A DNA stretch of 64,000 nucleotides from Clostridia bacterium (lineage in GTDB: Bacteria > Bacillota > Clostridia > Oscillospirales > CAG-272), in the NCBI GenBank assembly GCA_017456145.1, contig JAFTJZ010000034.1, positions 2,412-66,411 on the forward strand, written 5' to 3'. A program made the position numbers and the translations under genes. The notes under the pieces were generated by a model that was given only the letters and a program-made list of their open reading frames with translations, ran no database searches and was not told where the DNA came from. Position 1 is the stretch's first letter; each line of letters begins with the position of its first letter. Positions 6,841 through 50,601 of this stretch are shown one piece after another.

Positions 6841-6863
6841 ACGGCTCCTTTCTTTTCCTTACA

Positions 6864-7418: not shown

Positions 7419-7900
7419 TCGTCCGCTTCCCCCCTCTTTTCCCAGGCTGCTACCAGCGCAGCACGAGCAAAACGATAGCCGGCAAGCCGTTCTTCCAGCT
7501 CCACACGCTCCCAATCATTTGCCATAGCGAATCTTTTCTCATGCTCGGCAATCAAAAGGTCCGTAAAAGCCAAAAAGCCCAAGTACAGACCATATTCGGG
7601 CTGTTTATCTTTTGGAGCGTGTTCATATTGCTCGACCAAGTCCGCCCGTGCGAGCAGCGCTTGCTCTACATCCGAAATCAGATAATGCGTTTCGCATAGA
7701 CGCTCCCGCAGCCGATACGAGTGCATCAATCTGGCTTGAACGTTACTCACCGCGGCATAGCGATACTTTGCGCACTTATATTCCGCGATCTTCTGTTTTT
7801 TCTCGGAAGGATTTTTGTCCAAAGCATCGGTGAACAGACAAATCCGTCGGCACTCCTCACGCATGGCTTCGTAAGCCAACGTATAAAATGAATTGTTCAT
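7415..7900 (-). CDS. Hypothetical helical protein (161 aa)
   Basis: ORF 7415..7960 trimmed to MNNSFYTLAYEAM... The start overlaps the upstream stop (ATGA at 7897..7900) and the stop overlaps the downstream ATG. I recognise no family. Confidence 0.6.
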   Translation of the reverse strand: MNNSFYTLAYEAMREECRRICLFTDALDKNPSEKKQKIAEYKCAKYRYAAVSNVQARLMHSYRLRERLCETHYLISDVEQALLARADLVEQYEHAPKDKQPEYGLYLGFLAFTDLLIAEHEKRFAMANDWERVELEERLAGYRFARAALVAAWEKRGEADE

Positions 7901-8391
7901 TCCGTCACCTCCGTTTTGAGTTCTGCCCAAAGCCCCATTTCTGCGCGGGCACCGCGCCAAGCCGACACCACATCGTGTAAAACTTCATATTTCATCTTAG
8001 CTTTGAATATCAGATTCTGATCTCCGCTCGCCTTTGCGGCATCACGCTCTTTTTGATACATTTCAAGAAAACCTGAACTCATCCATATTTCGGGATAGAG
8101 CGCGACCTCCAAGATCGCCTTTTGCTCCTCGCTCAAAGTTGCGTGATACGCCGCAAGCTGTGGGAAATGGCAAACGAAATTGGGAAAACGCCGGTGTATG
8201 GTCTTGGCGGGATCGGGCATACAGGCGCACAAGCCCGCCTGCAGGCAGACGTTGTAAATACCGCGCTGCATTTGCAGTACGCCGCGCTCGGTTGCGTTTT
8301 CCTTACCCAGCGCGCCCATCTTTTCCAAGCACGCCGCATCCTTTTCACGTACCACACGGCACAGCGCCTCATGTATCATTTGTTCGGTCAT
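7897..8391 (-). CDS. Hypothetical protein (164 aa), first gene of a translationally coupled operon
   Basis: ORF in the track. A consensus promoter lies about 50 nt upstream. I recognise no family. Confidence 0.6.
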   Translation of the reverse strand: MTEQMIHEALCRVVREKDAACLEKMGALGKENATERGVLQMQRGIYNVCLQAGLCACMPDPAKTIHRRFPNFVCHFPQLAAYHATLSEEQKAILEVALYPEIWMSSGFLEMYQKERDAAKASGDQNLIFKAKMKYEVLHDVVSAWRGARAEMGLWAELKTEVTE

Positions 8392-8414
8392 ATTGATCTA
8401 CCTTCTTTCTTGAT

Positions 8415-8436
8415 CAGTGTAAAATCGCTTACACTG
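8415..8436. promoter_or_regulatory. Inverted repeat (candidate operator) in the leader of the 8391 operon
   Basis: CAGTGTAA-N6-TTACACTG with perfect 8-bp arms. It sits immediately downstream of the -10 box. Confidence 0.45.
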
Positions 8437-8438
8437 AT

Positions 8439-8467
8439 ATTATACACATCTAATCACTTTTTGTCAA
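8439..8467 (-). promoter_or_regulatory. Consensus sigma-70 promoter of the 8391..6864 operon
   Basis: Reverse strand reads TTGACA (8467..8462), a 17-nt spacer, then TATAAT (8444..8439). Confidence 0.7.
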
Positions 8468-8515
8468 GAGGTAATTCGACAATCATCTAATCATTCTACC
8501 AATGGTAGAGAAAAG

Positions 8516-8532
8516 TCCCGCACGAGGCGGGG
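8516..8532 (-). terminator. Hairpin terminator 3' of the AraC-family gene
   Basis: CCCGC-acgag-GCGGG stem. On the minus strand it is followed by ACTTTTCTC. The same 17-mer hairpin recurs at 18548..18566. Confidence 0.5.
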
Positions 8533-8539
8533 CAAACTA

Positions 8540-9445
8540 TCATTCGTCCTTCTCCACGGGGATCCAGAGTTCTCTGTAGCGTTGATTGCTCCTCTCCCCG
8601 CCATACCAATGCGTCACCACCAGCTCCGGCGCATTGGCAAGCCGGTAGCCCGAGGTGGGCAGCCATTCGCTTGCGATGCGTTTCCGCAAATCAAGAAAAA
8701 CCATGGTGGGATAAGAGCACCGCTCGGTCTCGAATATCGCATAAGTAGCTTTGGGAATAGTGATGTTTTCGAAATACCTTGCATATTCCTTGCCGAGAAC
8801 GCCGTCTTTTTCCAGATTGTTCCGATAATACTCAGACAGTTGATTAGCAATATAGAAATCGTAGCCCTCGTCATCCACGTTTGTGATAATATCATAACCG
8901 GTATCATCATGCCGTCCCGAAAGTCCCGTCAGGATATACTGCAGCGCTCTGGTTTTGACGTACATCTCCTTTTCTTGTTCCATACGCTCGCCGGGAACGC
9001 CGAGAAAACGACGCTTATACCCCGTCAAAATCATTTCATCCTTTTCTTCAATTCTGTAGTTCATCATACTACCGCCTTCCATTGAAATTTTGATCAACAA
9101 GCGGGAAAAGGAGCGGAGCATCTTTCCGTTCGTGCGCGCCTCGGACGGTGTGATGCCATGGAATTTTTGAAATGCTTTGGCAAAGCTGTCGGGGCTGTCG
9201 TAGCCGTATTTGAGTGCAATATCAATAACCTTTTTTTTGCCACCGGCAAGCTCCGCGCCCGCAAGCGTCAGCCGCCGCAAGCGAATATACTCTCCCAGCG
9301 TGTAGCCGCAAAGGATACTGAACACTCTTTGAAAATGATAGCTCGATGAAAAGCTCTGCCGCGCGACCGCCTCATAATCGATCTCCTCGGTCAGATGCGC
9401 CTCGATGTAGTCAATTGCCCGCTGCATTCCCTCAATCCAGTCCAT
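8540..9445 (-). CDS. AraC-family transcriptional regulator with GyrI-like effector-binding domain
   Basis: ORF 8540..9526 trimmed to ATG 9445 (AGGAGGgatggaaATG). HTH_AraC motifs SSSYHFQRVFSILCGYTLGEYIRLRRL and YDSPDSFAKAFQKFHGITPSE are present, with a C-terminal GyrI-like fold. Confidence 0.85.
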   Translation of the reverse strand: MDWIEGMQRAIDYIEAHLTEEIDYEAVARQSFSSSYHFQRVFSILCGYTLGEYIRLRRLTLAGAELAGGKKKVIDIALKYGYDSPDSFAKAFQKFHGITPSEARTNGKMLRSFSRLLIKISMEGGSMMNYRIEEKDEMILTGYKRRFLGVPGERMEQEKEMYVKTRALQYILTGLSGRHDDTGYDIITNVDDEGYDFYIANQLSEYYRNNLEKDGVLGKEYARYFENITIPKATYAIFETERCSYPTMVFLDLRKRIASEWLPTSGYRLANAPELVVTHWYGGERSNQRYRELWIPVEKDE

Positions 9446-9526
9446 TTCCATCCCTCCTGTCTGCCAATATTGTAGCAGAAACTGCGCCAAAAATCCCGAC
9501 TTTGAGTGCGGTGATGTATCGGACAT

Positions 9527-9555
9527 ATTATATCACATTGACAAAGAGATGTAAA
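9527..9555 (-). promoter_or_regulatory. Promoter for the AraC-family gene
   Basis: Reverse strand reads TTTACA, a 17-nt spacer, then TATAAT. Confidence 0.5.
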
Positions 9556-9580
9556 GCCCCCGCAAAACGCAAAACGTGTA

Positions 9581-9610
9581 TTGACAGCCGATTGGGTTAT
9601 ATGATATAAT
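9581..9610 (+). promoter_or_regulatory. Promoter for the GH31 gene
   Basis: TTGACA (9581..9586), an 18-nt spacer, then TATAAT (9605..9610). It diverges from the AraC gene. Confidence 0.6.
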
Positions 9611-9637
9611 GAAAAAAACACACGGGAGGATAGGAGT

Positions 9638-12007
9638 ATGAGGATGATTACACACCATCGTGTGCCGCACGGCGCGATTTTCCAGAGTGACGAGGGCATT
9701 GTCCTGCGCGTGCAGGCTTGGCGGGAGGACATTCTGCGTCTCTCCTGCACCAAGGGCAACTTTACCGACGGGGAGAGCGACATTGTCACCGCCTCGCCGA
9801 ACAACGTTCCGCTCATTTTGACCGAGGAGGCGGATCGCATCACCGTCGGCACCTCGCGCGTGACGCTGGAGATCCGCCGCCACACCTTTGCCATGCGCTT
9901 TTTGCGGGGCGGGACAGAGATTCTTCGTCTTGCCTCGGAACCGCTGCAGCTGCTGGACACCACCGTCACCGTCCCACGCCACACCGCCGACCGCGAGACA
10001 CCCGACCGCTTGAAGTTGGTCAAAACCGACACGCTCCCCGGCTACCGTTTCTCGCTCTCGCTTGATCTTGATCCCAACGATGTGATCTACGGTCTGGGGC
10101 AATACGGTAACGGCAGCCTCAACCGTCGCGAGGTCGCGCTGGAGCTCTACCAAATGAACAACTTTGCGCCCGTTCCCTTTATGGTCTCCGACCGCGGCTG
10201 GGGTATTCTGGTGGACACAGGAGCTTATTCGACCTTCTCCCGCGATGCCTTCGGCACCACCTTCTACACCGATGCCGTCAGCATGGGCGATTTCTATTTC
10301 TGCGGGAGCGAGAGCATCGACGGCGCCATCGCCGCCTACCGCACCCTGACCGGTGCCGCGCCCATGATGCCCAAGTGGCTGTTCGGCTACGCGCAGAGCA
10401 AGGAGCACTACCACACCGGGGAGGAGCTGCTCTCGGTGCTATGTGAATACCGCCGCCGTGGCGTACCGCTCGATCTGATCGTGCAGGACTGGAACTACTG
10501 GAAGGAGGGCACTTGGAGTGACAAATCCTTTGATCCCGCCCGCTATCCCGACCCCACCGCCATGTGCGACGAGGTACACAAAAACCATGCCCACATTATG
10601 ATCTCGGTCTGGCCCAACACCCGCGGGGGCGACAGTTTCCGCGAGCTGTTTGATAAGGACGGGCTGCTGACCGACGAGGGCACCTTTGGCGGGGGCGGCG
10701 TTTACAATGTCTTTGACGCTGCCGCCTGCGACATCTACACCTCACAGCTGGAAAACATCCGCCGCCACGGCTTTGATGCGTGGTGGTGCGATGCGACCGA
10801 GCCGTTTGAGACGGGATACGGCGACCGCATCACACCGAGCGAGCTCAGAGAGCGCGTCATGCCTTACTACCGCCGCTATTTTGACAGCCGCAAGATCAAT
10901 CTCTTTTCCCTGCTCCACGCGGGCAATGTCTATCATTACACCCGCCGTGCGGAAAATGAAAAAAAGCGCGTCGTCAACCTCACTCGCTCAGGCTACGCGG
11001 GACAGCAGAGATACGGCACTATCGTCTGGAGCGGTGATATTGGCGGCTCGTTTGCCGAGATGAAACGGCAAATCGCCGAGGGGTTGAATTTCTGCGCCTC
11101 GGGGCTGCCCTACTGGTCGCTGGACATCGGTGGTTTCTTCCCGACGCACGGCAGCGCCACCTTCAACTGCCATGTTCCCTACCACGCCGTCAGCGAGCCC
11201 GGCTACCGCGAGCTGTACGTTCGCTGGCTGCAGCTTGGCTGCTTTCTGCCCGTTTTCCGCTCCCACGGCACCACCTTCCCCCGCGAGATCTGGCGCTTTG
11301 GCGAGAAGGGGGAGCCATTCTACGATGCGATTGAAAAATTCATCCGCCTGCGCTACACCCTGATGCCTTACATCTACTCCACGGCATGGCAGGTGACCAA
11401 AAATCACAAGACTTTTATTCGCCTGCTTGCCTTTGATTTTCCGCATGACGCCCGTGCCCTGACCGAGGATACCACGTATCTGTTCGGTCGGTCACTGCTG
11501 GTCAGCCCTGTCACCGAGCCTCAATACTATGAGGGGGCCGACATACCGCTCGACGTACCGCAGATCAAGGACGTTTATCTGCCCGCAGGCGCGGATTGGT
11601 ACAACTACTTCACAGGCGAGCGCTTTGCGGGCGGCAATGTCGTCGCGGTGGGCACACCGCTGGACTCCATGCCACTCTTTGTCCGCGCGGGGAGCATCCT
11701 GCCCACCTCGCCCGTCATGCAGTACGTGGATGAGATCCCCGACGCGCCCTACACCGTCACGGTCTATCCCGGCGCGGACGCAGACTTCACGCTCTACGAG
11801 GACAGCGGCGACGGCTACGCCTATGAGGCGGGCGAATACGCCGAGGTCGATCTCCACTGGAGCGATACGGCGCACACGCTGACCGTCTGTGCCCGCCGCG
11901 GCGACTTCCCCACGCTGGTCCGCAGCCGCACCATGCATCTGCGCGTCGTTGGCGGCAAGGAGACGACCGTTACCTACATTGGCGAGAGGATTTGCGTCGA
12001 GCTGTGA
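9638..12007 (+). CDS. Glycoside hydrolase family 31 (alpha-glucosidase/alpha-xylosidase-like)
   Basis: 789 aa with GGAGGATAGGAGT before the ATG. GH31-type motifs are present: DLIVQDWNYWKEG, ISVWPN, DAWWCDATEPF and VWSGDIGGSF. Confidence 0.85.
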   Translation: MRMITHHRVPHGAIFQSDEGIVLRVQAWREDILRLSCTKGNFTDGESDIVTASPNNVPLILTEEADRITVGTSRVTLEIRRHTFAMRFLRGGTEILRLASEPLQLLDTTVTVPRHTADRETPDRLKLVKTDTLPGYRFSLSLDLDPNDVIYGLGQYGNGSLNRREVALELYQMNNFAPVPFMVSDRGWGILVDTGAYSTFSRDAFGTTFYTDAVSMGDFYFCGSESIDGAIAAYRTLTGAAPMMPKWLFGYAQSKEHYHTGEELLSVLCEYRRRGVPLDLIVQDWNYWKEGTWSDKSFDPARYPDPTAMCDEVHKNHAHIMISVWPNTRGGDSFRELFDKDGLLTDEGTFGGGGVYNVFDAAACDIYTSQLENIRRHGFDAWWCDATEPFETGYGDRITPSELRERVMPYYRRYFDSRKINLFSLLHAGNVYHYTRRAENEKKRVVNLTRSGYAGQQRYGTIVWSGDIGGSFAEMKRQIAEGLNFCASGLPYWSLDIGGFFPTHGSATFNCHVPYHAVSEPGYRELYVRWLQLGCFLPVFRSHGTTFPREIWRFGEKGEPFYDAIEKFIRLRYTLMPYIYSTAWQVTKNHKTFIRLLAFDFPHDARALTEDTTYLFGRSLLVSPVTEPQYYEGADIPLDVPQIKDVYLPAGADWYNYFTGERFAGGNVVAVGTPLDSMPLFVRAGSILPTSPVMQYVDEIPDAPYTVTVYPGADADFTLYEDSGDGYAYEAGEYAEVDLHWSDTAHTLTVCARRGDFPTLVRSRTMHLRVVGGKETTVTYIGERICVEL

Positions 12008-19646: not shown

Positions 19647-19817
19647 TAGAAACACCTCACAGAATTTATTGAATCCGGATTCTGCTATAATTGTAACACA
19701 TGGTACTAAAAAAAACAATAACTTGTTTTTTTAATATGATGCAACCTGCAGTTGAGAGACTGTGCTTTTCAGCATTTCCCGACGCTTGCGTCTGGGGCAA
19801 GCATATAAGAGACATAG

Positions 19818-19857
19818 CAAAAAGCAGGCGCACATCTTCGATGTACTCCTGCTTTTT
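19818..19857 (-). terminator. Intrinsic terminator following tRNA-like module U3 (exact copy of the tRNA-Glu terminator)
   Basis: The minus strand reads AAAAAGCAGGAGTACATCGAAGATGTGCGCCTGCTTTTT, identical to 20148..20186. Confidence 0.7.
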
Positions 19858-19858
19858 G

Positions 19859-19964
19859 TGGTGACCCGTACGGGAATCTGAACCCCGCTTTGCGCCGAAA
19901 GAAAATCAGCGCTCCTACTTCAGCGTAGCGCAAAACAGCAAATGCTTGCGCATTTGCGGGGCAC
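19859..19964 (-). ncRNA. tRNA-3'-end-bearing structured module U3 (not a complete tRNA)
   Basis: The minus strand reads GCCCCGCAAAUGCGCAAGCAUUUGCUGUUUUGCGC-[32 nt]-GCGCAAAGCGGGGUUCAGAUUCCCGUACGGGUCACCA. The last 20 nt are identical to the 3' end of the adjacent tRNA-Glu. It is paralogous to U2. Confidence 0.45.
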
Positions 19965-19987
19965 AATTCGGTTAGAATCGGCAACAC

Positions 19988-20016
19988 AAAAGGCACCACC
20001 TTCGGTGATGCCTTTT
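19988..20016 (-). terminator. Intrinsic terminator following module U2
   Basis: The minus strand reads AAAAGGCATCACCGAAGGTGGTGCCTTTTGTG. Confidence 0.7.
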
Positions 20017-20020
20017 GTAT

Positions 20021-20126
20021 TGGTGACCCGTACGGGAATCTGAACCCCGCTTTGCGCCCTCAAAAATTCAACGCTTGCGCTGCAGCAATGCGCAAAGCAG
20101 CAAATGCTTGCGCATTTGCGGGGCTC
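20021..20126 (-). ncRNA. tRNA-3'-end-bearing structured module U2 (not a complete tRNA)
   Basis: Same 5' 35 nt (1 mismatch) and same 3' 37 nt as U3, with a divergent 32-nt centre. Predicted helices are GCAAAUGC-GCAA-GCAUUUGC (GNRA loop), CUUUGCGC/GCGCAAAG and CCCCG/CGGGG. Confidence 0.45.
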
Positions 20127-20147
20127 GATTCAATAAGAGATCATAGC

Positions 20148-20186
20148 AAAAAGCAGGCGCACATCTTCGATGTACTCCTGCTTTTT
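20148..20186 (-). terminator. Intrinsic terminator of tRNA-Glu
   Basis: GCAGG...CCTGC stem with an inner ACATC-GAA-GATGT helix, followed by TTTTT. It starts 2 nt after the CCA end. Confidence 0.8.
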
Positions 20187-20187
20187 G

Positions 20188-20263
20188 TGGTGACCCGTAC
20201 GGGAATCGAACCCATGTTTCCAGCGTGAGAGGCTAGCGTCTTGAACCGCTTGACCAACGGGCC
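20188..20263 (-). tRNA. tRNA-Glu (anticodon CUC), CCA encoded
   Basis: The minus strand reads GGCCCGUUGGUCAAGCGGUUCAAGACGCUAGCCUCUCACGCUGGAAACAUGGGUUCGAUUCCCGUACGGGUCACCA. It folds as a cloverleaf with acceptor GGCCCGU/ACGGGUC, anticodon stem CUAGC/GCUGG, loop CUCUCAC and T-loop UUCGAUU. It closely resembles the canonical Firmicutes tRNA-Glu. Confidence 0.9.
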
Positions 20264-20456: not shown

Positions 20457-21038
20457 TCAATCCTCGCGCACGACGATAGACTCATCATCCGCGAGCGCAA
20501 CGACGTGATAAGGGCTTTCGCGGCGCAGGTGCTCATAATCCTCGCGTCGTGCGTCGGTGTAGTGGCAGACCAAAATGCCACCATAAAAGCCCAGTCCCGA
20601 AAAGTCTGTCAAGCCGAAGGTGTCGGTGTCATACCTTGCGACATGCGCGACATCAACGCAGGCAATGTGCGCGCCCGCGCTGCCGCCGGCATAAGTGACA
20701 CCGCGATGAACCGCGTTTTGAATGATACGATCATATCCCGCCTCGCGGATGCGTTTGAGCGTACCGAAGGTGTTGCCGCCGCTGATATAAATGAGATCCA
20801 CGTCGGGCGTTACATCCGGCGCGGAGCGAAAGTAATCGGCAACATGAATATTCTTCCGCAGAAATCCAAAAGCGCACAGGCGGGATTCATACTTACCGCT
20901 TTTGAGCTTTTCGGGGGTTGCTTTTTCGTTGGGGAAATACAACACGCGGCAATCGCGCAGTGGCTTGCAGAGATTGTCGCAGATAAAGGCTGCCGACTTG
21001 GGATTTCCAAAATCGCAGGAGGATAAGATCAGTTTCAT
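20457..21038 (-). CDS. Peptidase S51 (dipeptidase E-like)
   Basis: 193 aa with LIYISGGNTFGTL and TYAGGSAGAHI (Ser nucleophile context). There is a 4-nt overlap with the upstream GNAT gene. Confidence 0.75.
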   Translation of the reverse strand: MKLILSSCDFGNPKSAAFICDNLCKPLRDCRVLYFPNEKATPEKLKSGKYESRLCAFGFLRKNIHVADYFRSAPDVTPDVDLIYISGGNTFGTLKRIREAGYDRIIQNAVHRGVTYAGGSAGAHIACVDVAHVARYDTDTFGLTDFSGLGFYGGILVCHYTDARREDYEHLRRESPYHVVALADDESIVVRED

Positions 21039-21595
21039 GCTTTACATAGCTCCTTTTGCATCAGATATTCATTCACCGACCGCCCGTCCTTCAGCTTGAA
21101 TGCGTTCGGGCGCACGGCAACGATCCGGAAACCGAATTTTTCATACAGCGCGCGGGCGCGTGCATTGCCCTCGATAAATTCCAGGTCGATCAACTCGGTA
21201 CCATCGTGCGCCATCGCCGCTGCGATCATAGCGTCAAACATGGCGCTGCCGATGCCAAGCCCCCAGTACTTTTTCAAAATAGCAATGCCGATCGTGGCAC
21301 GGTGGCGGATTTTGATGCCGCTGCGGAAGGCAATCTCGCAGTTCCCCGCGATCTCGCCATCCACGTAGCAGGAAATACGCAAAATATCCGCCGATTCTCG
21401 CCCGTTTCGAATCCAGTTTTCCTCGCTCTCGATCGTCACGCCCTCCCACTCCTCGGGATAGCGCACGAGAAACTCAGTCTCGCCGCACGCAGTCGTGATG
21501 TAGTGCAGCATCTTGGCACCGTCGCCGACCTCGGGTGTTTTCAGTATGGCAGCTCTGCCGTCCTTTAATGTAATTTGTTTGTTTTCTATTATCAT
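21035..21595 (-). CDS. GNAT-family N-acetyltransferase
   Basis: 186 aa with the acetyl-CoA binding motif ILKKYWGLGIGSAMFDAMI and ...ARALYEKFGF. Confidence 0.85.
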   Translation of the reverse strand: MIIENKQITLKDGRAAILKTPEVGDGAKMLHYITTACGETEFLVRYPEEWEGVTIESEENWIRNGRESADILRISCYVDGEIAGNCEIAFRSGIKIRHRATIGIAILKKYWGLGIGSAMFDAMIAAAMAHDGTELIDLEFIEGNARARALYEKFGFRIVAVRPNAFKLKDGRSVNEYLMQKELCKA

Positions 21596-21626
21596 CTTTG
21601 ATCATTCCTTTCTAAAAACATATTTG

Positions 21627-21838
21627 CCAAGGGGCGTTGCCCTGTGCCTCCGGCAGCCAAGGGGCGTCGCCCTGTGCCTCCGGCGGCCAAGGGGCGTCGC
21701 CCCTTAAACCCCACCAAGAACCTTTTTGAAAAAAGGTTCTTGGAACTCCAAAAACTTTGAATCAATTTTTGAGTTGAATTTTTAGCGGTTCTGTTCTCTC
21801 CATGCGTTTCTGTTGTCCATGTGGGGCCCCTACCCCAC
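21627..21838 (+). repeat. Multi-hairpin intergenic repeat, subfamily 2, copy a (with a 30-nt tandem head)
   Basis: The head is 2.6 tandem copies of CCAAGGGGCGT(T/C)GCCCTGTGCCTCCGGC(A/G)G (21627..21705). This is followed by the core palindrome CCAAGAACCTTTTTGAAAAAAGGTTCTTGG (21714..21743) and the tail GTGGGGCCCCTACCCCAC. 90 nt (21708..21797) are identical to 23731..23820. Confidence 0.85.
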
Positions 21839-21990
21839 AAGATGGCAGAGAAATAGTTTCTGCCCCGGCGGAACGCCGTAGGAGGCAGGCTAATCCTCGC
21901 GACACGCACCGGGTAACAGAGCAAAATGCACCCGTAAAGACCCAATCCTGAAATTTGTGTCTTGATATATCATCATATTCTCCATCCTTA

Positions 21991-22368
21991 TTAATCGACA
22001 ACCCCGACTTGATACTCATCTTCATAAACAATCTTACCCACATAATTGGTGTAAACAATATCGTAAGGAATATCATATTTATCAAGCAAGTCTATAAGCG
22101 GCTGTATGCGTTCAAGCATTTCAGAACTGTTTTCTGTTTTGAAATAAGTAATTGCCCCTTGAGGATTGTCATTATTGTCTCCATAAAATGGAGGCTGAGG
22201 TAAATTGTCGAGAAACCATTGATGTGTATCGTCATACAGTTTTACATCTTCGGGGCTATAAATATTGTCGCGTATTCTGCGCCAATTCAAAATAAATACC
22301 CCTACTGGTTTCTTTGTTCTCCACGCAATTTCACGTCCTTGTATTCTCACATATTTCGGTAATTTCAT
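21991..22368 (-). CDS. Hypothetical protein (125 aa), AT-rich
   Basis: ORF 21991..22386 trimmed to ATG 22368 (ATGA overlap with the GNAT stop). I recognise no family. Confidence 0.55.
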   Translation of the reverse strand: MKLPKYVRIQGREIAWRTKKPVGVFILNWRRIRDNIYSPEDVKLYDDTHQWFLDNLPQPPFYGDNNDNPQGAITYFKTENSSEMLERIQPLIDLLDKYDIPYDIVYTNYVGKIVYEDEYQVGVVD

Positions 22369-22892
22369 TTGGGGTCTCCTTCCCATTTCAGATAACCGCT
22401 TGTAAACGGAAGATGGTCAAACTTCTTTGTTCCGGTATGAACAAATCCGTTCGCTATGTACCAATTTTTTAAAACGGTACTTTCTTCGATAATACCGATT
22501 TTTATTACATGACCGCCCGATGCTTTCACTACATCCTTTGCGTGATCGAGAAGTAATTTGCCAAAGCCATTATGTCTGTACTCCGGTAACACCGCAAGGT
22601 TGTGAAGCTCAAAGGCATCGTCGCTTTCTTTAGAGAGCGACATATATCCGATAATTTTCTTGCCGGCATACAATGCGTACATATTCCAACCCCAATTCTT
22701 CTGCGTTTCAAGAAAAGAAAGAGGAATAAAGCTCGTATGTTTCGGACAGTTTTCTTTCGTCAATCCAAACTGATCTGCCACAGTCCGAAAACTCCGATGA
22801 ATGACATCCAAACACTCATTAAAATCATTCTTATTTACTTCTTGTATTTTTGGTTCAGCGCCAAACACGATATTTAATTTACTCATCGTCAT
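22365..22892 (-). CDS. GNAT-family N-acetyltransferase, AT-rich
   Basis: 175 aa with LHNLAVLPEYRHNGFGKLLLDHA and ...WYIANGF. Confidence 0.8.
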   Translation of the reverse strand: MTMSKLNIVFGAEPKIQEVNKNDFNECLDVIHRSFRTVADQFGLTKENCPKHTSFIPLSFLETQKNWGWNMYALYAGKKIIGYMSLSKESDDAFELHNLAVLPEYRHNGFGKLLLDHAKDVVKASGGHVIKIGIIEESTVLKNWYIANGFVHTGTKKFDHLPFTSGYLKWEGDPK

Positions 22893-23679
22893 ATTCCTTC
22901 CTGAAAATATCCAGCATATGGTTCGTCGCGCCGATCAAATCGGGGCGTTCGCAGATGCTGAGTGTATAGTGCATATAGACAGCAAAGGTCTCGTCATCCA
23001 TGGCATCCAGACACTCATTCATCATGCGGGTGAGCATATCGGTGCCGACGTAGTGCAGCCGCGTGGTGGGAAAGCCCTGCATGAGCGCATCGACGTCCTC
23101 CTTGCGGTACAGCTGAAACACATCCTCGGGCAGGGAGTACAGCTTATAAGTCTTGGTATCGATCTTATTCTGCGCGAGGGACTGGTGGATCATGCCGCGC
23201 ATAAAGCAATACTGCAGCATGGTCATGTCGCTGTTGCAATAGGCAGCAAAGACAATACCGCCCGTTTTGGTGACGCGGATGGTCTCGGCAAGTGCCTGTT
23301 TTTGCTCCGGCTCGGTATAGAGATGATACATCGGACCGAGCAGCAGCGTGATGTCATAGCTCTCGTCGGGGATATGCGCAAGATCCAGCGCGTCGCCCTG
23401 CGTGATGGTGACACGCTCGCCCTCCTCGGTATTGGCGCGGAACACCTCGATGTTATGCTCCACCAACTCAACGGCGTCCACCTCATACCCCTTTTGCGCA
23501 AAATAGTGCGAATACCTTCCCGTACCCGCGCCGATCTCCAAAATCTTCATACCCGACTTCAGATACCGCTCGACGTAATGTACCGTCGTTAAAAATTCAA
23601 CCAGACCGTGCTTGGCGCGCAGCCGCCCGTCCTCGTTGTGTGATGAATAGTAGTTTACTACAGCTTCAATTCTTTCCAT
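22879..23679 (-). CDS. Class I SAM-dependent methyltransferase
   Basis: 266 aa with motif I ILEIGAGTGRYSHYF and an acidic post-I residue in YEVDAVEL. Confidence 0.85.
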   Translation of the reverse strand: MERIEAVVNYYSSHNEDGRLRAKHGLVEFLTTVHYVERYLKSGMKILEIGAGTGRYSHYFAQKGYEVDAVELVEHNIEVFRANTEEGERVTITQGDALDLAHIPDESYDITLLLGPMYHLYTEPEQKQALAETIRVTKTGGIVFAAYCNSDMTMLQYCFMRGMIHQSLAQNKIDTKTYKLYSLPEDVFQLYRKEDVDALMQGFPTTRLHYVGTDMLTRMMNECLDAMDDETFAVYMHYTLSICERPDLIGATNHMLDIFRKEYDDE

Positions 23680-23710
23680 AATAATAATCCTTTCGTTTGG
23701 TTATAGTGGA

Positions 23711-23862
23711 CAAGGGGCGTTGCCCCTTGAACCCCACCAAGAACCTTTTTGAAAAAAGGTTCTTGGAACTCCAAAAACTTTGAATCAATTTTTGAGTTGA
23801 ATTTTTAGCGGTTCTGTTCTGTTTACGCGGTTCTGTTGTCCATGTGGGGCCCCTACCCCACA
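23711..23862 (+). repeat. Multi-hairpin intergenic repeat, subfamily 2, copy b
   Basis: CAAGGGGCGTTGCCCCTTG hairpin, core palindrome at 23737..23766, and tail GTGGGGCCCCTACCCCAC. It is a direct repeat of copy a. Confidence 0.85.
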
Positions 23863-23908
23863 TATCAGCAGCGAGATACGTTCAGCAGCAGACATTCCCG
23901 TCAAACAT

Positions 23909-24062
23909 TTGGGGTAGGGGTCCCAAAAGGACGTTCCTGTTCGCTCATACAGAACCTGAGCGCAGCAGATTCAAGCAAAAAATAATATCAAGTTTTTTGG
24001 AGGTGTCGGAACCTTTTGTTCACAAAAGGTTCTGACCCAGCGGAGCGATGGCAACGCCCCGC
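23909..24062 (-). repeat. Multi-hairpin intergenic repeat, subfamily 2, diverged inverted copy b'
   Basis: The reverse complement has the same module order (GGGGCGTTGCC..., AGAACCTTTTGTGAACAAAAGGTTC, CTCCAAAAAACTTGA..., GGGACCCCTACCCCAA). It lies tail-to-tail with copy b. Confidence 0.7.
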
Positions 24063-24073
24063 ACTCCTGAAAA

Positions 24074-24118
24074 TATAAAAACGGTGCAAATCGAGAAAAA
24101 ATCATCGACTTGCACCGT
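24074..24118 (-). terminator. Strong intrinsic terminator of the micro-gene
   Basis: The minus strand reads ACGGTGCAAGTCGA-tgattttttc-TCGATTTGCACCGT followed by TTTTTAT. Confidence 0.8.
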
Positions 24119-24153
24119 TCATATCCAAATATGATGATAGGGGAAAAACAGCC

Positions 24154-24264
24154 CTATTTTGCAAAATGGGTACGACAACACAAGCCCGACGGGACCCAAG
24201 GGTTGGGTTCCATGCCGTGCTTTACGATTACGGTAATGTTCAGTTGGAACATACGGTAAGCCAT
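24154..24264 (-). CDS. Micro-ORF (36 aa) MAYRMFQLNITVIVKHGMEPNPWVPSGLCCRTHFAK; could alternatively be a structured sRNA
   Basis: Too short for the ORF track. It has AAAGGA 8 nt before the ATG, a perfect promoter upstream and a strong terminator downstream. I recognise no family. Confidence 0.5.
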   Translation of the reverse strand: MAYRMFQLNITVIVKHGMEPNPWVPSGLCCRTHFAK

Positions 24265-24297
24265 GGTTGTCGTCCTTTCTTTGGAAAATATGCGGCT

Positions 24298-24326
24298 ATT
24301 ATAGCACACTTTTCCCGCTTTGTCAA
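24298..24326 (-). promoter_or_regulatory. Perfect consensus sigma-70 promoter of the micro-gene
   Basis: Reverse strand reads TTGACA (24326..24321), a 17-nt spacer ending in TGc (extended -10), then TATAAT (24303..24298). Confidence 0.75.
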
Positions 24327-24532
24327 TAGCTGATTTCGTTTTTTTTCGGCTTTTAGCTGTTATTTCACTGTCAGCACACTGTTCTCCCCCGCGCTGGCCT
24401 ATATCGAGTGCGCCTGACCAATGCCACGCACGCCGCCTGCTGCAATATCAGCGAGGTCTACTTTCGCAAGCTGTTCACCGAGCAATATCGAACCACACCC
24501 AAGCAGTGACTGCTGGACTATCGCATCGAAAC

Positions 24533-24601
24533 GTTTTTGAAGGATCCAAGGAAACTTTTTTCAAAAAGTTTCCTTGGCGGGGCTTGGGGCAGCGCCCCAA
24601 C
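24533..24601 (-). repeat. Multi-hairpin repeat, subfamily 1, copy c (hairpins A+B)
   Basis: Core CCAAGGAAACTTTTTTCAAAAAGTTTCCTTGG (24546..24577) plus TTGGGGCAGCGCCCCAA (24584..24600). This 69-nt stretch is identical to 26017..26085. Confidence 0.85.
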
Positions 24602-24621
24602 ACTGCACCGACGGCGCGAGA

Positions 24622-25749
24622 TCACAGCATCTTTTCTTCGCTCACGGTTTTGTCCGCAAGGGCATAAGGACGATATTGTGCAAGAATTGCCTGATATCGC
24701 TCGTTTTCATTATAGCAAGCAAAACAGAATGGGGGCTCCCCGAGTCGGTCCAACAGCCACTGTACACCGTTACACTTCCCACCGTCCCACGTTTTCTTCA
24801 TGTCATACGTGTAGCCACGCAGCGCTACCGAGGTGTGCGTGATTACATCGTTCGCGCACAGATCCAGTGCTCTTTGGTGTCGGAACGCCGTTTGCAGAGC
24901 CGCCAACGCATCCTCAGTCTGCCCCGCGTCGGTATAATAGCGGAACAGCGAGAGCTGAATATCAGCCATGACACTGTGGCAAATACCATGGTCAAACGCG
25001 GGATACAGGGCATCAGCAATGGCGCATGCTTGCTCCAAAATGCGGATTCTGTCTGCCGCCGACAGCGTCGCCCGATGCACAGCGATTCGACAAAGGAACC
25101 ACAAAACGTCCTCCATGCTGCGATGGATAAAGTCCGCCATGACGTGAAAATTCCTCTCGTCATCGGCAGGGTAAATGTCGCAAAGAGCAAATTCACGCGA
25201 ATCATTCAGGTCGGGCAGGCGTTCGGCTTGCGCCTTCGCCTTTTCATACTCACAAGAGCAGCTGTATAGCTCCACAAGGCTCATCACCGCATCGTAGCGA
25301 TAACGATCCACGGTACACTCCCGCATGACATAGGCGCAAAGCGACTCGATCTCCTCTTTGTTTTGTGTCACATTTTCCACATCCATCAACGCGGTAATGT
25401 ACCATGAGATCACGCCGAAGTCATATGGAAATTCCGCATATGCCGCTCTTGCCAGCGCATTTTTGGATTGGTGATCTCCGATGTGGCGATAATGCTCCAA
25501 GCGCGACAGAATTTCTTTGATTCTTTTCTCCTTGAGTGCCTCATCGCGTCCCATCAGCACATCCAGCGACACGCCAAAAAATTCTGCCAACGGGATAAGA
25601 AACATAATGTCGGGATAACCCTCGTTGCGCTCCCATTTGGATACAGATTGGGGAGAGACGCGGAGATATTCCGCCAGCTTTTCCTGCGACAAGCCGCGCG
25701 ACGTGCGCAGCTCTTTGATGTTTTTACCGAAATTCAGATTCATATTCAT
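24622..25749 (-). CDS. XRE-HTH + TPR-like repeat regulator (paralogue 3, 375 aa)
   Basis: FGKNIKELRTSRGLSQEKLAEYLRVSPQSVSKWERNEGYPD is the HTH, and the C-terminus is long helical repeats. Confidence 0.85.
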   Translation of the reverse strand: MNMNLNFGKNIKELRTSRGLSQEKLAEYLRVSPQSVSKWERNEGYPDIMFLIPLAEFFGVSLDVLMGRDEALKEKRIKEILSRLEHYRHIGDHQSKNALARAAYAEFPYDFGVISWYITALMDVENVTQNKEEIESLCAYVMRECTVDRYRYDAVMSLVELYSCSCEYEKAKAQAERLPDLNDSREFALCDIYPADDERNFHVMADFIHRSMEDVLWFLCRIAVHRATLSAADRIRILEQACAIADALYPAFDHGICHSVMADIQLSLFRYYTDAGQTEDALAALQTAFRHQRALDLCANDVITHTSVALRGYTYDMKKTWDGGKCNGVQWLLDRLGEPPFCFACYNENERYQAILAQYRPYALADKTVSEEKML

Positions 25750-25791
25750 TCACCTCAAATCAATTTTTAAGGGTGCGCATCCTTTGCCTAT

Positions 25792-25820
25792 AGTATACAG
25801 CAAAGCAGCCGCCGTGTCAA
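25792..25820 (-). promoter_or_regulatory. Promoter for HTH-TPR paralogue 3
   Basis: Reverse strand reads TTGACA, a 17-nt spacer, then TATACT. Confidence 0.6.
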
Positions 25821-26016
25821 TCACCGTGTGCGAGAAATGCCTCAACGGAAAAGCGAATGTTCACGTGGCCGTTGCAGGCTCGTTTTCAAAAAAACACTCA
25901 AGGTGTTTTCCCAAAAACACCTTGAGCTGTTTTATTCCAAGCCAACTGCTTGCCTTCGGCAACCGAAGCCCTTTGAACAAAAGACAATACAACAATCTTT
26001 CCTAAAATGATTGAAG

Positions 26017-26085
26017 GTTTTTGAAGGATCCAAGGAAACTTTTTTCAAAAAGTTTCCTTGGCGGGGCTTGGGGCAGCGCCCCAAC
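26017..26085 (-). repeat. Multi-hairpin repeat, subfamily 1, copy d
   Basis: Identical over 69 nt to copy c. It lies 17 nt 3' of the spoIVB stop. Confidence 0.85.
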
Positions 26086-26102: not shown

Positions 26103-27173
26103 TCACCCTGCGAGGTTGTCCATCTGCTCCAGCATATTTTCAATAAAAATTCCGTACCCGCGGGCGGGGTCGGAGATCAGGACATGAGTGACGGCGCCGA
26201 TCAGCTTACCGTCTTGAATGACGGGACTGCCGCTCATGCCCTGAATGATACCGCCGGACTCTTCAAGCAGTGCGGGATCGGTGACCTGGATAGAAAAACA
26301 CTTGGAGCCTTTGGCGTCGCGGTCAATGGCAGAAAGGGTAACGGTATAGCTGCGGCGCTCGTTGGCGGAGAGCGTACACAGAATCTCCGCCTCGCCTGTG
26401 TGAACCTCGTCGCGCGTGCCGAGAGGGATCGCTTGGTTCTCGATTCCGTCGGGGATCTCGCTCAATACGCCAAAGACTCCGCAGGCACAGTTTTGCCGCA
26501 GTGTACCAATCTTTCCCGTATGAAAATAACCCTTGATCTCACCCGGATTTCCCGCCACACCGCGCTTAATCCCACTGACAGTGACCTCGACGACGTTACC
26601 ACGGCGCACAGGCATCAATTCTCCCGTATCAATATCACAGATACCATGTCCCAGCCCGCCAAAGGTGAGCGTTTCCGGGTCAATATAGGTCAGTGTTCCA
26701 ATGCCCGCACCGCTGTCGCGGACATATAGCCCCGTGCGATAAGCACCATTTTCATCGAGAACCGGGGTAAGAGTTGCGGTCATTTCGTTCTCGCCGCGCA
26801 GATACGTGACGCTTACGGGGCTGCCACCCGAGGCACTGATCTGATCCGAGAGGGCTTGTGCGCTGTCGACGGGGGCATCGTTGAGCGCGATGATGACGTC
26901 CTTGAGCTTGATTCCGGCATCTTTTGCGGGATTCTGGCTCCCGTTTTCGGTCGTTATGTCACGAAAGCCCACCACAAGTACACCCTGGGTGGTAAATTTG
27001 ACCCCAAAGGGATAACCGCCGGGAATGAGGGCGGCGGGGCGTGTATTTTTCGCAGCGGATTGTAATATAGGCTCGCCGGTCTGTGCCATTACCTGCAGCG
27101 GGCAGAACGCAGCGGTAATCAACAATGAGAGGGCGAGCGAGACCGCCGTCAAAAAGCGGAGATTTCGTTTCAT
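26103..27173 (-). CDS. spoIVB: SpoIVB peptidase (S55 family, sporulation signalling protease)
   Basis: ORF 26103..27293 trimmed to MKRNLRFLTAVSLALSLLI (signal/TM). It has a PDZ-like segment (GIKLKDVIIALND), GIGTLTYIDPETLTFGGLGHGI and the catalytic Ser context GMSGSPVIQDGKLIGAVTHV. Confidence 0.85.
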   Translation of the reverse strand: MKRNLRFLTAVSLALSLLITAAFCPLQVMAQTGEPILQSAAKNTRPAALIPGGYPFGVKFTTQGVLVVGFRDITTENGSQNPAKDAGIKLKDVIIALNDAPVDSAQALSDQISASGGSPVSVTYLRGENEMTATLTPVLDENGAYRTGLYVRDSGAGIGTLTYIDPETLTFGGLGHGICDIDTGELMPVRRGNVVEVTVSGIKRGVAGNPGEIKGYFHTGKIGTLRQNCACGVFGVLSEIPDGIENQAIPLGTRDEVHTGEAEILCTLSANERRSYTVTLSAIDRDAKGSKCFSIQVTDPALLEESGGIIQGMSGSPVIQDGKLIGAVTHVLISDPARGYGIFIENMLEQMDNLAG

Positions 27174-27362: not shown

Positions 27363-28745
27363 TTATACTTCATAACCAAAAACAAAAACGTCCTGATCTG
27401 TCGCACCTTGAAACGCATCAAAATCAAAAGTAAGCGATCCGTAAACGGAATATTGACTCTGATTGTTATTGAGGGCTATCACTTGTTCAGGTTCCAAAAA
27501 CGAATATAGGGAAACGATCTGATCTCCGTTCCGATTGAATATGGGTGCCGATAAGCAGCCTTTATCCAATGTGATCACACGCTCCTGCAGCGTCTCCACA
27601 TCAAATATATGATATGTGCGGTCATACTGAAACAAGGTAATCAGCTTGCTCCCGTTCGGTGCGGTCGGATCGTCCACGGAATAATATCTGCCACCCGCAA
27701 TCAGAGCAGCCACCGCCAGCCGCGGCTCGCATTCCGCAACGCAAATATATCCGCCGCTTTGCTTGATGTTATACCGAACGCTGACGTTTTGCATGATCAG
27801 CTCGGGCTTGGCAGTGGGCATATCCACCTCGATACGGTACAGATCGGCAGCATGATCTTCTCCATACCCGTACGATACATCATACAAAGGAAATCTTTGC
27901 AGCTCCTCGGGAAGAGAGACCGTGACCTTATCTGTGTCGGAATACTCCATATAATAAATATAGCCTGCGTATATCTTTCCTCTATGCTCAAGCTCCTCTA
28001 CCTTTTTTTCGGAATCTTTCATGTTCAAACGATAAATTATCGTACTGATCGTATTAAAAAACAAAGCATCCCCCTCCACATAAGCAGGAATTGCCTGCAC
28101 GGGTAAGGTACACAAATATGTCCACTGCGCGGTATTGCCATTGAGCGCATATGCTTGGATGTACGTCGTTCCGTTCTCATCACTCTCGAATACGGTGTGA
28201 TAGATGATATTGGTTTTGACGTCGAAAGCCCATGTCGTACCCGTCGGCTTGTACGGCCCGGCAAGGACCTGCATCGTTTGCGACGCGTAGTCGTAGCGAC
28301 ACATATAATAACCGCCCCACTCATATCCCTTGCGATATTCGTAGCCGGGATCCTGCGTTTCAAAATATATCACAGGGCCTTCACGACTTTCGTTCGGCGA
28401 AACCACAAAATCCATGCAGAACCGAAACGCTTGGAGCGGGCAATCGTATTCATGCTCGCAAAGCGGATCAGGGCAAAGATAGAACCGCTCACCGGTTCTT
28501 GTATCGTAGATGTTCAGGGATGTTTTTTCCAACATCATATAGCCCCAATCTGCTCTCGTAGCGTTGGAACGAATAAGCGTTTCACCCTCCCAGGGCTCTA
28601 TATATTCATATTCATTACTTTCGGTTCCCGATATATTGTTTGAGGAATCGGTGTCGCTCCTATCATCGGTTGACTGTATTGCGGTACAGCCACACAAAAG
28701 CATCACGACCAAAAGCAAGGAAATCAAACGAACAAAATACTGCAT
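27363..28745 (-). CDS. Secreted probable lipoprotein (460 aa), beta-propeller-like, AT-rich
   Basis: MQYFVRLISLLLVVMLLCGC is a signal peptide with a Cys-containing lipobox-like end. The protein is rich in Tyr/Ile/Asp strand motifs (IYYxx). The function is not recognised with certainty. Confidence 0.7.
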   Translation of the reverse strand: MQYFVRLISLLLVVMLLCGCTAIQSTDDRSDTDSSNNISGTESNEYEYIEPWEGETLIRSNATRADWGYMMLEKTSLNIYDTRTGERFYLCPDPLCEHEYDCPLQAFRFCMDFVVSPNESREGPVIYFETQDPGYEYRKGYEWGGYYMCRYDYASQTMQVLAGPYKPTGTTWAFDVKTNIIYHTVFESDENGTTYIQAYALNGNTAQWTYLCTLPVQAIPAYVEGDALFFNTISTIIYRLNMKDSEKKVEELEHRGKIYAGYIYYMEYSDTDKVTVSLPEELQRFPLYDVSYGYGEDHAADLYRIEVDMPTAKPELIMQNVSVRYNIKQSGGYICVAECEPRLAVAALIAGGRYYSVDDPTAPNGSKLITLFQYDRTYHIFDVETLQERVITLDKGCLSAPIFNRNGDQIVSLYSFLEPEQVIALNNNQSQYSVYGSLTFDFDAFQGATDQDVFVFGYEV

Positions 28746-33517: not shown

Positions 33518-33537
33518 GGACGGAGGGCCTCTGTCAA

Positions 33538-33620
33538 CCAAGGAAACTTTTGAAAAAAGTTTCCTTGGTTCCTTCAAAAAAACTTCCATCAGTAAAATCG
33601 TTTCTATTGAATTAAGCCCT
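33538..33620 (+). repeat. Multi-hairpin repeat, subfamily 1, copy e (hairpin B + diverged C, no GC hairpin)
   Basis: CCAAGGAAACTTTTGAAAAAAGTTTCCTTGG (33538..33568) followed by TTCCTTCAAAAAAACTT... It begins 20 nt after the ABC stop. Confidence 0.75.
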
Positions 33621-33659
33621 TTGGAATTTCTTGAACCACCCAAGGCAGAAAGGAGTCCT

Positions 33660-34517
33660 ATGACCGATCCACTGGCTTATGAGAAGGCGCACTTTTCGCG
33701 CATTGCCGAGGAGCATCTGCGCCGCAGCGCGCTTGCGGCAGCTGCGGGCGAGAGCGGCATCGGCACGCTCAACGAAAAACACCTGCACGCCATTCTCAAG
33801 GATTATATGTGTGAGGACCGTGCGCGCCAGGAGGTGCGTCTGGATGACCATATCATCACGGGGCGATATCCCATTCGCGACGACAAGATCATCAAGCGCG
33901 ACGCCGACCGCTACGTTGCAGATATTCTGACCGAGGCGGACGAGATCATCGAAATTCAGACAGGTAGCTTTTACCCACTGGTCAAAAAGCTGGATTTTTA
34001 CCTTCGCATGACCGATTGTCGCGTTACGGTGGTACATCCCATCGCGGCGCAAAAATGGCTGCGTTATCTGGACGGCAACAGCGGAGAGCTCTCTGCTCGC
34101 CGTCGCAGCCCCAAGCATGAGGGTGTCAAAGACATTGCGCATGAGCTGTATTGGCTCGCGCCATATCTTGCCGAGCCGCGATTCTCCTTACAGCTGGAGC
34201 TTTTGGAGGTCGAAGAGATCCGTATGACGGGGGTCAAAAAATATCGCGGGCGGCATCGCTCCGAGCGATACGATTGTATCCCGCTGGCTCTGCTGGATGA
34301 GATCGTGCTCACCTGCCCCGAGGATTACGCCGAGCACTTCCTCCCCGACGAGAGCGTACTCCCCTCTCCCATCAGCGCTGCCGACTTCAGCCGCGCCACA
34401 GGCATCCGCGGGCGCGCTGTCTACGGCATTCTCGGCATCCTTTGCGACCTCGGATTTCTCCGCGTCATGGATAAAGAGGAAATCAAGGCGCGCGGTCGCC
34501 GCTGGGCGCGGCTATGA
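33660..34517 (+). CDS. Hypothetical protein with PD-(D/E)xK nuclease-like core (CoiA-like D...E-I-Q signature)
   Basis: ORF 33387..34517 trimmed to ATG 33660 (AGGAGtcctATG). The motif RYVADILTEADEIIEIQTGSF resembles the D-x(n)-E-x-Q nuclease core. The assignment is tentative. Confidence 0.5.
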   Translation: MTDPLAYEKAHFSRIAEEHLRRSALAAAAGESGIGTLNEKHLHAILKDYMCEDRARQEVRLDDHIITGRYPIRDDKIIKRDADRYVADILTEADEIIEIQTGSFYPLVKKLDFYLRMTDCRVTVVHPIAAQKWLRYLDGNSGELSARRRSPKHEGVKDIAHELYWLAPYLAEPRFSLQLELLEVEEIRMTGVKKYRGRHRSERYDCIPLALLDEIVLTCPEDYAEHFLPDESVLPSPISAADFSRATGIRGRAVYGILGILCDLGFLRVMDKEEIKARGRRWARL

Positions 34518-50504: not shown

Positions 50505-50601
50505 CAATTTTCCCGAGGTCTCCGCGCTTTTGCGGGAGACCTCGGGCTCTTTTTATGAAAAAAGGTTGACATATTTGTGGTTTTATGATACAATAAGGGA
50601 A

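Follow-up and report, generated by a model that had tools for sequence, protein, structure and literature searches.

The window analysed here is a stretch of 64,000 nucleotides of contig JAFTJZ010000034.1 from a Clostridia bacterium; all coordinates are positions within it, and the repeat analysis covers these 64 kb of the genome. Between 21.6 and 26.1 kb it carries five copies (a, b, b', c and d) of a short, hairpin-rich repeat, which lie among genes encoded without exception on the minus strand. A sequence-only reading of the window had taken these copies as brackets of two adjacent accessory cassettes, the first ('cassette 1', 21991-23679) with three genes between a and b, and the second ('cassette 2') with a single regulator gene between c and d. 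The genes and other features of the region, apart from the repeats themselves, were as follows.

20188-20263, minus strand: tRNA-Glu, with a consensus promoter at 20311-20283; conserved right anchor of a variable interval
20457-21038, minus strand: S51 peptidase gene, outside the a/b bracket and part of the same recurrent gene neighbourhood
21035-21595, minus strand: GNAT1, also outside the a/b bracket and of the same recurrent neighbourhood
21891-21961, minus strand: S51 peptidase relic, 70.7% nucleotide identity to 20536-20610, with a frameshift (TQISGLGLYGCILLCY versus TDFSGLGFYGGILVCH)
21991-22368, minus strand: gene of a 125-aa protein without Pfam match
22365-22892, minus strand: GNAT2, overlapping its neighbouring genes
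22879-23679, minus strand: TehB-like S-adenosylmethionine methyltransferase gene, last of the three overlapping genes of 'cassette 1'
24075-24326, minus strand: micro-gene unit, with promoter 24326-24298 (12/12), open reading frame (ORF) 24154-24264 and hairpin 24075-24124
24622-25743, minus strand: helix-turn-helix (HTH) regulator gene with a weak tetratricopeptide repeat (TPR) match, promoter 25820-25792; 'cassette 2'
25896-25927, both directions: bidirectional intrinsic terminator downstream of copy d, probably ending spoIVB transcription
26103-27173, minus strand: spoIVB, conserved left anchor of the variable interval

Alignment of the copies showed that the full-length element is about 165 nt long with up to four hairpins, and that short forms are about 72 nt long. 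The modules are hairpin H1 (AAGGGGC-nnn-GCCCCTT; 17 nt), hairpin H2 (CCAAGGAAACTTTTT-GA-AAAAAGTTTCCTTGG; 30-32 nt), the short motif C (ATCCTTCAAAAAC), the variable region H3 and hairpin H4 (TGTGGGG-CCCCTA-CCCCACA; 20 nt). The window holds 10 repeat loci, two of them inverted doublets, that is 12 units, which occur in both orientations and are all intergenic. Chance was excluded, since the hairpin core pattern found no match in 100 shuffles. The copies are listed below.

21626-21685, plus strand: two extra tandem 30-nt units (H1 and TGTGCCTCCGGC linker) at the 5' end of copy a
21685-21863, plus strand: copy a, full length (H1, H2, C, H3, H4; element 21686-21845); nhmmer E = 6.6e-47, DNA fold z-score -4.9
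23708-23886, plus strand: copy b, full length (element 23709-23868), antisense to the operon; nhmmer E = 5.9e-48
23901-24064, minus strand: copy b', diverged full length; nhmmer E = 3.5e-37
24525-24601, minus strand: copy c, short form (H1, H2, C), sense, 20 nt past the regulator stop codon
26014-26090, minus strand: copy d, short form, sense, 12 nt past the spoIVB stop codon
33518-33592, plus strand: copy e (H2 and C, without H1), directly after the stop codon of an ABC-transporter gene
50603-50940, plus strand: copies f and g, each an inverted doublet, in tandem with a 179-nt period (starts 50603 and 50782)
56265-56344, plus strand: copy h, degenerate short form (H1, H2, C), 10 nt past a stop codon
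58678-58810, plus strand: copy i (H1-H3, without H4), 6 nt past a stop codon

Copies a and b are direct repeats with 94.8% identity over 155 nt. They share an identical run of 91 nt (21707-21797 = 23730-23820) and an identical tail of 32 nt (21808-21839), and their mismatches are concentrated at 21798-21807. Copies c (24533-24601) and d (26017-26085) are identical at 69 of 69 positions, and the identity ends at both edges of this stretch. Between the two supposed cassettes lie the micro-gene and b', the latter tail-to-tail with b as an inverted doublet. All of this had been described correctly from the sequence alone: the direct repeats with their long identical run and tail, the perfect match of c and d, and the diverged inverted copy with a micro-gene between the blocks. 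However, the contrast drawn there between the perfect identity of c and d and a clear divergence of other family members has to be weakened, since c and d share 93% identity with f and g (50.6 and 50.8 kb) and 86% with i (58.7 kb); with f and g lying 25 kb off, the subfamily is homogeneous across the window. When nine copies were compared, the top three of the 36 pairs were the neighbours a/b, c/d and f/g (97%, 99-100% and 97% identity over the 5' half), and the similarity of each pair ended at the element borders. Since adjacent copies are the most similar and the similarity is confined to the element, the pattern suggests local copying or gene conversion among neighbouring copies. That part of the proposed origin stood, while insertion or excision of the enclosed genes found no support. 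The family is modular: the H1 unit occurs three times in copy a and twice (H1 and linker) in the metagenome locus L021, and inverted doublets were seen in f, g, b/b' and L021a/b, those in tail-to-tail arrangement including g, b/b' and L021a/b.

Outside the window, an exact-pattern scan of JGI contigs revealed six further loci (L018-L023) in metagenome contigs, which match the window at the repeat only and share no gene with it. A 3' half-copy in contig L013 (E = 1e-10), from a different species, is the sole proof of a second carrier species. No sign of a phage or plasmid origin was obtained, as the H2 pattern had 0 matches in IMG/VR, and blastn in distant mode returned nothing when copy a was compared with plasmids and doublet f with phages. 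The gap between the ABC-transporter and DUF8091 genes, where copy e lies (33518-33660), is 143 nt long in the window; in L013 (3832-4357) it extends over about 525 nt, and in a further relative, L012 (1249-2215), over about 965 nt. In both relatives it is crowded with other hairpin repeats, including GTAG-type palindromes that resemble repetitive extragenic palindromic (REP) sequences, and the clade seems to be generally rich in intergenic mosaic repeats.

The hairpins are conserved as structures. As MAFFT put the H2 arms out of register, stems were tabulated directly instead. H1 was found in four stem variants (AAGGGGC/GCCCCTT, TTGGGGC/GCCCCAA, GCAGGGC/GCCCTGC and CGGGGGC/GCCCCCG), and fully complementary variants numbered six for H2 and four for H4. 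RNAalifold reported double changes at 7 of the 18 consensus pairs, and these substitutions indicate that the stems are maintained through compensatory changes. Predicted folds had z-scores of -4.3 to -6.1 against shuffled controls, and doublet f folded as a single long hairpin (-44 kcal/mol; z-score -6.1). In Rfam, with both the gathering threshold and an E-value threshold applied, no family was found at the repeats and only tRNA-Glu passed; the best match at the repeats was a plastid 3' untranslated region (UTR) hairpin with 29.9 bits versus a gathering score of 51.5. Intrinsic termination was not indicated either: no U-tract stood behind any hairpin in sense orientation (AAGCCCC follows H1 and ATCCTTC follows H2), and the terminator scan flagged nothing more there than a weak alternative hairpin on the minus strand of copies a and b. 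The hairpins are therefore not canonical terminators.

The position of the copies relative to genes was not even. In 10 of the 19 copies (c, d, e, h, i, L018a, L019, L020, L021a and L022) the H1 end lies 0-20 nt past a stop codon of the same sense. An antisense orientation was found for a, b and L023, whose H1 ends lie upstream of a start codon at a distance of 20-30 nt (measured in a from the first of its tandem H1 units, at 21626); copy a lies between the genes of the 125-aa protein and GNAT1 and is antisense to both, and the H1 end of b is 29 nt upstream of the methyltransferase start codon. Lying between the spoIVB stop codon and the terminator at 25896-25927, copy d is very probably transcribed as part of the spoIVB 3' UTR. 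Located just after a consensus promoter at 50566-50594 (TTGACA-17-TACAAT), copies f and g belong to the 5' leader of the gene at 50962-52848, where the doublets could serve as a leader structure or attenuator. A promoter-like site was also noticed inside b' (24009-23982, minus strand: CCGACA, a 16-nt spacer and TATTAT, with TG before the extended -10); it faces the methyltransferase operon, and the repeat may supply the promoter of that operon.

The proposal that the repeats bracket two cassettes did not hold, as members of the family stand in other gaps of the window (33.5, 50.6, 50.8, 56.3 and 58.7 kb) and in unrelated contigs. For the c/d block, the relative L012 (GCA_054291245.1; SpoIVB 72% identical) carries an orthologous regulator directly after spoIVB, with 57% identity over 366 aa versus just 26-27% to the other paralogues of the window, and no repeats beside it; its spoIVB-regulator gap contains a plain hairpin followed by a T-run and no repeat copy. 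The block is thus not a cassette, and the regulator beside spoIVB appears to be ancestral synteny. L012 has no copy d after spoIVB, and the intergenic DNA there is too diverged to define a precise insertion.

Nor is copy a the edge of a block, since it sits within a recurrent gene neighbourhood. The gene of the 125-aa protein, noted also in contigs L024, L028, L034, L036 and L038, recurs beside genes for TehB-like methyltransferases, PNP_UDP_1, GNAT, NUDIX and S51 peptidase proteins, and genes of the window's neighbourhood return as neighbours in L024, L034 and L036. In L024, a methyltransferase (62% identity), PNP_UDP_1, the GNAT1 orthologue (55%) and the 125-aa protein (85%) are encoded contiguously; L034 combines two methyltransferases and PNP_UDP_1 with the 125-aa protein and a NUDIX protein, and in L036, where PNP_UDP_1 is present too, the S51 peptidase gene stands two genes from that of the 125-aa protein. 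The 125-aa protein itself had no Pfam or NCBIfam match and no convincing match among solved structures. Its unnamed family shows 70-92% identity across many Clostridia and an Acholeplasmatales metagenome-assembled genome, while SpoIVB reaches at most 75%.

The composition of the three-gene block was as had been noted, the first two genes being AT-rich (36.5% GC for the 125-aa gene and 39.8% for GNAT2, versus 53% for the methyltransferase gene and 51.5% for the window). However, the limits of the AT-rich segment (about 21.95-22.9 kb) are not those of the a/b bracket. We considered the AT-rich block as a transferred unit and rejected this, because the closest homologue of the 125-aa gene (92% protein identity, L038) has only that gene in common with the window (84% nucleotide identity, 22004-22368) and no flank, and because the gene is AT-rich in other hosts as well (in L024, 42% GC versus 51-61% for its neighbours). 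Its composition is thus a trait of the gene family and not a marker of the a/b block.

That the region is accessory was confirmed, on a larger scale than proposed: the interval between spoIVB and tRNA-Glu is wholly different between related species, and the true variable unit is the whole islet between these two conserved anchors. It measures 0.2, 4.3 and 5.9 kb in three relatives, with seven genes and five repeat copies in the window, four genes in L012 and none in L033, and the window and L012 share the regulator only. In L033 the tRNA-Glu promoter and gene lie within about 200 nt of spoIVB. L012 has the regulator, an epimerase, a dehydroquinase and a split AraC gene, followed by tRNA-Glu. 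Upstream, the synteny of MarR and ABC-transporter genes is kept in the window, L012, L013, L032 and L033, whose SpoIVB proteins are about equally distant from each other (65-76% identity). Within the islet of the window the repeats fill four of the five intergenic gaps. Beside it, upstream of spoIVB, a 460-aa protein without family match is encoded (27363-28745); L012 has a tandem duplicate of it (6804-9797; 71% and 56% identity), and L013, L032 and L033 showed no match or called gene for it beside spoIVB, so this locus is a second variable spot.

Closer comparisons were limited by the available genomes. No SpoIVB of 75-100% identity was found among 5.8 billion proteins, and a scan of genome contigs gave nothing closer than 71%, which leaves no intermediate genomes to compare; the contig with the 71% identical SpoIVB (L005) is not syntenic on either side and thus uninformative. 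Within the species, eight contigs from at least five samples, chosen by identical GNAT1 or SpoIVB proteins, showed no presence/absence variant of the blocks, which is weak evidence because they are 99.8-100% identical to the window. The contigs seemed to differ in length by 100, 54 and 8 nt at c, b and d, but scaffolding accounted for all of this, in the form of N runs or poly-G/C artefacts. Such N runs, poly-G/C artefacts or contig ends fell exactly inside repeats in six of the eight public contigs (L001/L016, L002, L004, L014, L015 and L017). Separately, of the nine positions at which contig L002 departs from the window, six are clustered in a 52-nt part of GNAT2 (22638-22689), which resembles a short tract acquired from a divergent allele by recombination.

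The sequence-only reading had also found no known architecture for this arrangement, which has to be corrected, since interspersed mosaic repeats of the REP, BIME or BOX kind fit it. REPs are short GC-rich intergenic palindromes. Most lie 3' of coding regions, where the neighbouring genes are co-directional or convergent; they often form inverted pairs that fold into larger hairpins, and they occur in mosaics with other motifs (PMC3733652, PMC2817692, PMC3116915). The present family resembles the REP, BIME and REPIN elements of Proteobacteria, which are mobilised by RAYT transposases (Y1 HUH enzymes with a cognate single-copy gene flanked by the repeats), in its dispersed intergenic palindromes (17 to 32 nt, versus 20-40 bp in REPs) and in its inverted doublets able to fold as one hairpin. 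Its copy number, 12 units in 64 kb, would extrapolate to hundreds, and REPs typically exceed 100 per genome. However, REPs have a conserved unpaired GTAG or CGTC tetranucleotide at one palindrome end (PMC3733652), and here such a tag is absent: the AA/TT or TT/AA flanks of H1 lie within the stem, and CGTC and GTAG occur in loops only (GTC, GTT, GCT, TCT or TTT in H1; CCCCTA, CCCCTG or CCCCGT in H4), GTAG being confined to the H4 loop on the opposite strand in five of the eight full-length copies. Furthermore, the repeat unit is longer (72-165 nt, up to four hairpins), and the host belongs to Clostridia, whereas PMC3733652 makes no mention of Firmicutes or Clostridia. No RAYT or transposase domain was found in the ORFs scanned at 12-29 kb.

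The pneumococcal BOX element consists of boxA, a variable number of boxB and boxC (PMC3049150). It is likewise a modular composite of less than 200 bp in a Firmicute, with an internal module of variable copy number and partial forms, strongly base-paired, intergenic and without its own transposase (PMC3049150). The likeness is one of description: Streptococcus pneumoniae is an unrelated organism, the modules here are GC-rich, and it is the 5' hairpin that multiplies, not the central box. To our knowledge, BOX elements have not been noted for a sense bias close to stop codons.

Miniature inverted-repeat transposable elements, including the palindrome-associated ones derived from IS200/IS605, are also small, non-coding, multicopy and structured, with hairpins near both ends. 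The present repeats are GC-rich rather than AT-rich and could not be traced to a parent insertion sequence; in place of clear terminal inverted repeats, their ends show just a weak GGGG...GCCCC resemblance, and none of the eight full-length copies (including a, b, L018a, L019, L020 and L021a/b) had a target-site duplication. The islet as a whole recalls the minimal mobile elements of Neisseria, a concept for alternative gene sets between conserved flanking genes, in that zero, four or seven genes lie between syntenic flanks; here, however, the comparison is among species about 28% diverged in SpoIVB and not among strains, and the gene sets would have been exchanged by homologous recombination in the flanks. 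Integron cassettes share short structured repeats between consecutive genes of one strand; they come with an IntI tyrosine recombinase and attI, and each has a single attC at its 3' end, all in one orientation. Unlike them, the locus has no IntI or recombinase domain, no R''-L''/L'-R' organisation of attC, copies in mixed orientation and beside housekeeping genes, and not one repeat per gene, with three repeats in one intergenic stretch. The absence of integrase and transposase domains from the ORFs of the region and of an attC organisation is thus one point on which the sequence-only reading was accurate. A composite transposon does not fit either, as the repeats are non-coding, 72-165 nt long and not transposase-encoding insertion sequences. 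The nearest analogues therefore appear to be REP/BIME/REPIN and BOX, by likeness and not by demonstrated membership.

Taken together, we consider it probable, at roughly three chances in four, that the copies belong to a modular, hairpin-rich, non-coding interspersed repeat family and are passengers of the islet, not boundaries of mobile cassettes. The family would have colonised intergenic gaps of an uncultured Oscillospirales-like genome, most often right after stop codons, where its elements would be transcribed within neighbouring mRNAs and their hairpins may stabilise mRNA 3' ends. To judge by the similarity pattern, new copies would arise near old ones, or gene conversion would homogenise neighbours; either a transposase acting in trans from elsewhere in the genome or recombination might drive such local spread or homogenisation. 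The copies may crowd the islet because constraint is weak there. As direct repeats of 69-155 nt, they could at times mediate RecA-dependent deletion of the DNA between them; nothing indicates that repeat-mediated recombination was the route by which the genes arrived. Several points weigh against seeing the copies as passengers. Five of them lie within 4.5 kb versus seven units in the other 59.5 kb, a real enrichment that this model explains just loosely. The strong sense bias beside stop codons could point to function or target specificity over neutral colonisation. As for mobility, no empty/filled site pair, target duplication, clear terminal inverted repeat or candidate transposase was found.

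The position bias leads to the first alternative, in which the repeat chiefly serves as an RNA-level module of 3' untranslated or intercistronic stretches, where it stabilises the upstream mRNA or attenuates read-through, and is kept beside stop codons by selection for this role and not as selfish mobile DNA. The 10 sense copies within 20 nt of a stop codon agree with it, as do the compensatory changes in the stems and the probable transcription of copy d, and for REPs, which share the preference for sites 3' of coding regions, an action at the RNA level is assumed (PMC3733652). However, the missing sense U-tract shows that the hairpins are not canonical terminators, a, b and L023 are antisense to the surrounding genes, and the stems consist of Watson-Crick pairs only and would fold equally well on either strand and as DNA. 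The element is also absent at orthologous sites in related species and is therefore dispensable there. On balance we regard a mainly RNA-level role as unlikely. With about the same reserve we mention a more specific idea, namely that this is a previously undescribed element class of gut Oscillospirales, a four-hairpin module placed or kept in sense orientation 0-20 nt after stop codons, either as a target-specific non-autonomous transposon or as a portable 3' UTR RNA module. We hold this doubtful; if true, local copying or conversion of such a stop-codon-proximal element could help make the islet a recombination hotspot.

A quite improbable alternative starts from the S51 relic, which covers 71 nt past the stop codon of the 125-aa gene, on the side facing copy a. 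By itself the relic points to an older rearrangement inside the supposed cassette or to a decayed duplicate. It might be the leftover of a tandem duplication of a repeat together with its downstream operon, which made a and b paralogous and after which the genes of one copy were replaced. The relic indeed lies where the 3' end of a duplicated GNAT1-S51 unit would be, and the H1 ends of a (from 21626) and b are both about 30 nt upstream of a start codon. However, the relic has diverged to 70.7% identity versus 95% for a and b, which excludes a single event without later homogenisation of a and b; the offsets disagree (1355 nt for the relic versus 2023 nt for a/b), BLASTP detects no similarity of GNAT1 to GNAT2, and the similarity of a and b ends at the element edges. 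Least probable of all, and in our view very improbable, are recombination sites bracketing two mobile cassettes in a new integrase-free system: the direct orientation and high identity within a/b and c/d, the truly variable interval, its enrichment in repeats and the AT-rich 125-aa gene and GNAT2 would suit it, but the regulator stands in the same place in L012 without repeats, copy a divides a recurrent gene neighbourhood, the AT-rich segment is not coincident with a/b and the 125-aa gene is AT-rich in other genomes too, repeats elsewhere adjoin housekeeping-type genes without a paired partner, and the eight strain contigs show no variant arrangement.

Two further features of the islet deserve description. 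The micro-gene, of 36 codons, has a sigma-70 consensus promoter (12/12, with TG extension), a ribosome-binding site and a terminator-like hairpin, and thus looks like a real transcription unit. Its peptide had no homologue but itself among 1.84 billion representative proteins, other matches being to repetitive sequences and chance-like, and Rfam returned nothing; the product may be a small RNA rather than a protein. A role of the peptide as a signal for the HTH-TPR regulator, as in quorum sensing of the RRNPP type, was considered and dropped, since the orthologous regulator in L012 has no such neighbour. At the other end of the islet, two units of about 118 nt lie downstream of tRNA-Glu (20021-20138 and 19859-19976, within 19813-20263). 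Both terminate in a T-arm and acceptor 3' end like those of a tRNA (GGGGTTCAGATTCCCGTACGGGTCACCA), and a separate terminator hairpin belongs to each. An exact 66-nt repeat lies there as well (19813-19878 = 20142-20207), and GC content is 37-41% below 19.8 kb. The unit of about 118 nt also stands beside tRNA-Glu in L012 (90% nucleotide identity over 300 nt) and L033. These units could have been left behind by integration at the 3' end of the tRNA, or they could represent a conserved small RNA that resembles a tRNA.

For the organism, the finding replaces a new integrase-free cassette system with an uncatalogued family of interspersed mosaic repeats in an uncultured clostridial lineage of the ruminant gut. 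Short-read assemblies break or become corrupted at these repeats, and indels that databases show there should not be trusted. The repeats also give a handle for strain typing, and in genes such as spoIVB they may alter read-through or the stability of the mRNA. Their bias toward stop codons and the islet between spoIVB and tRNA-Glu are modest leads on genome plasticity in Oscillospirales.

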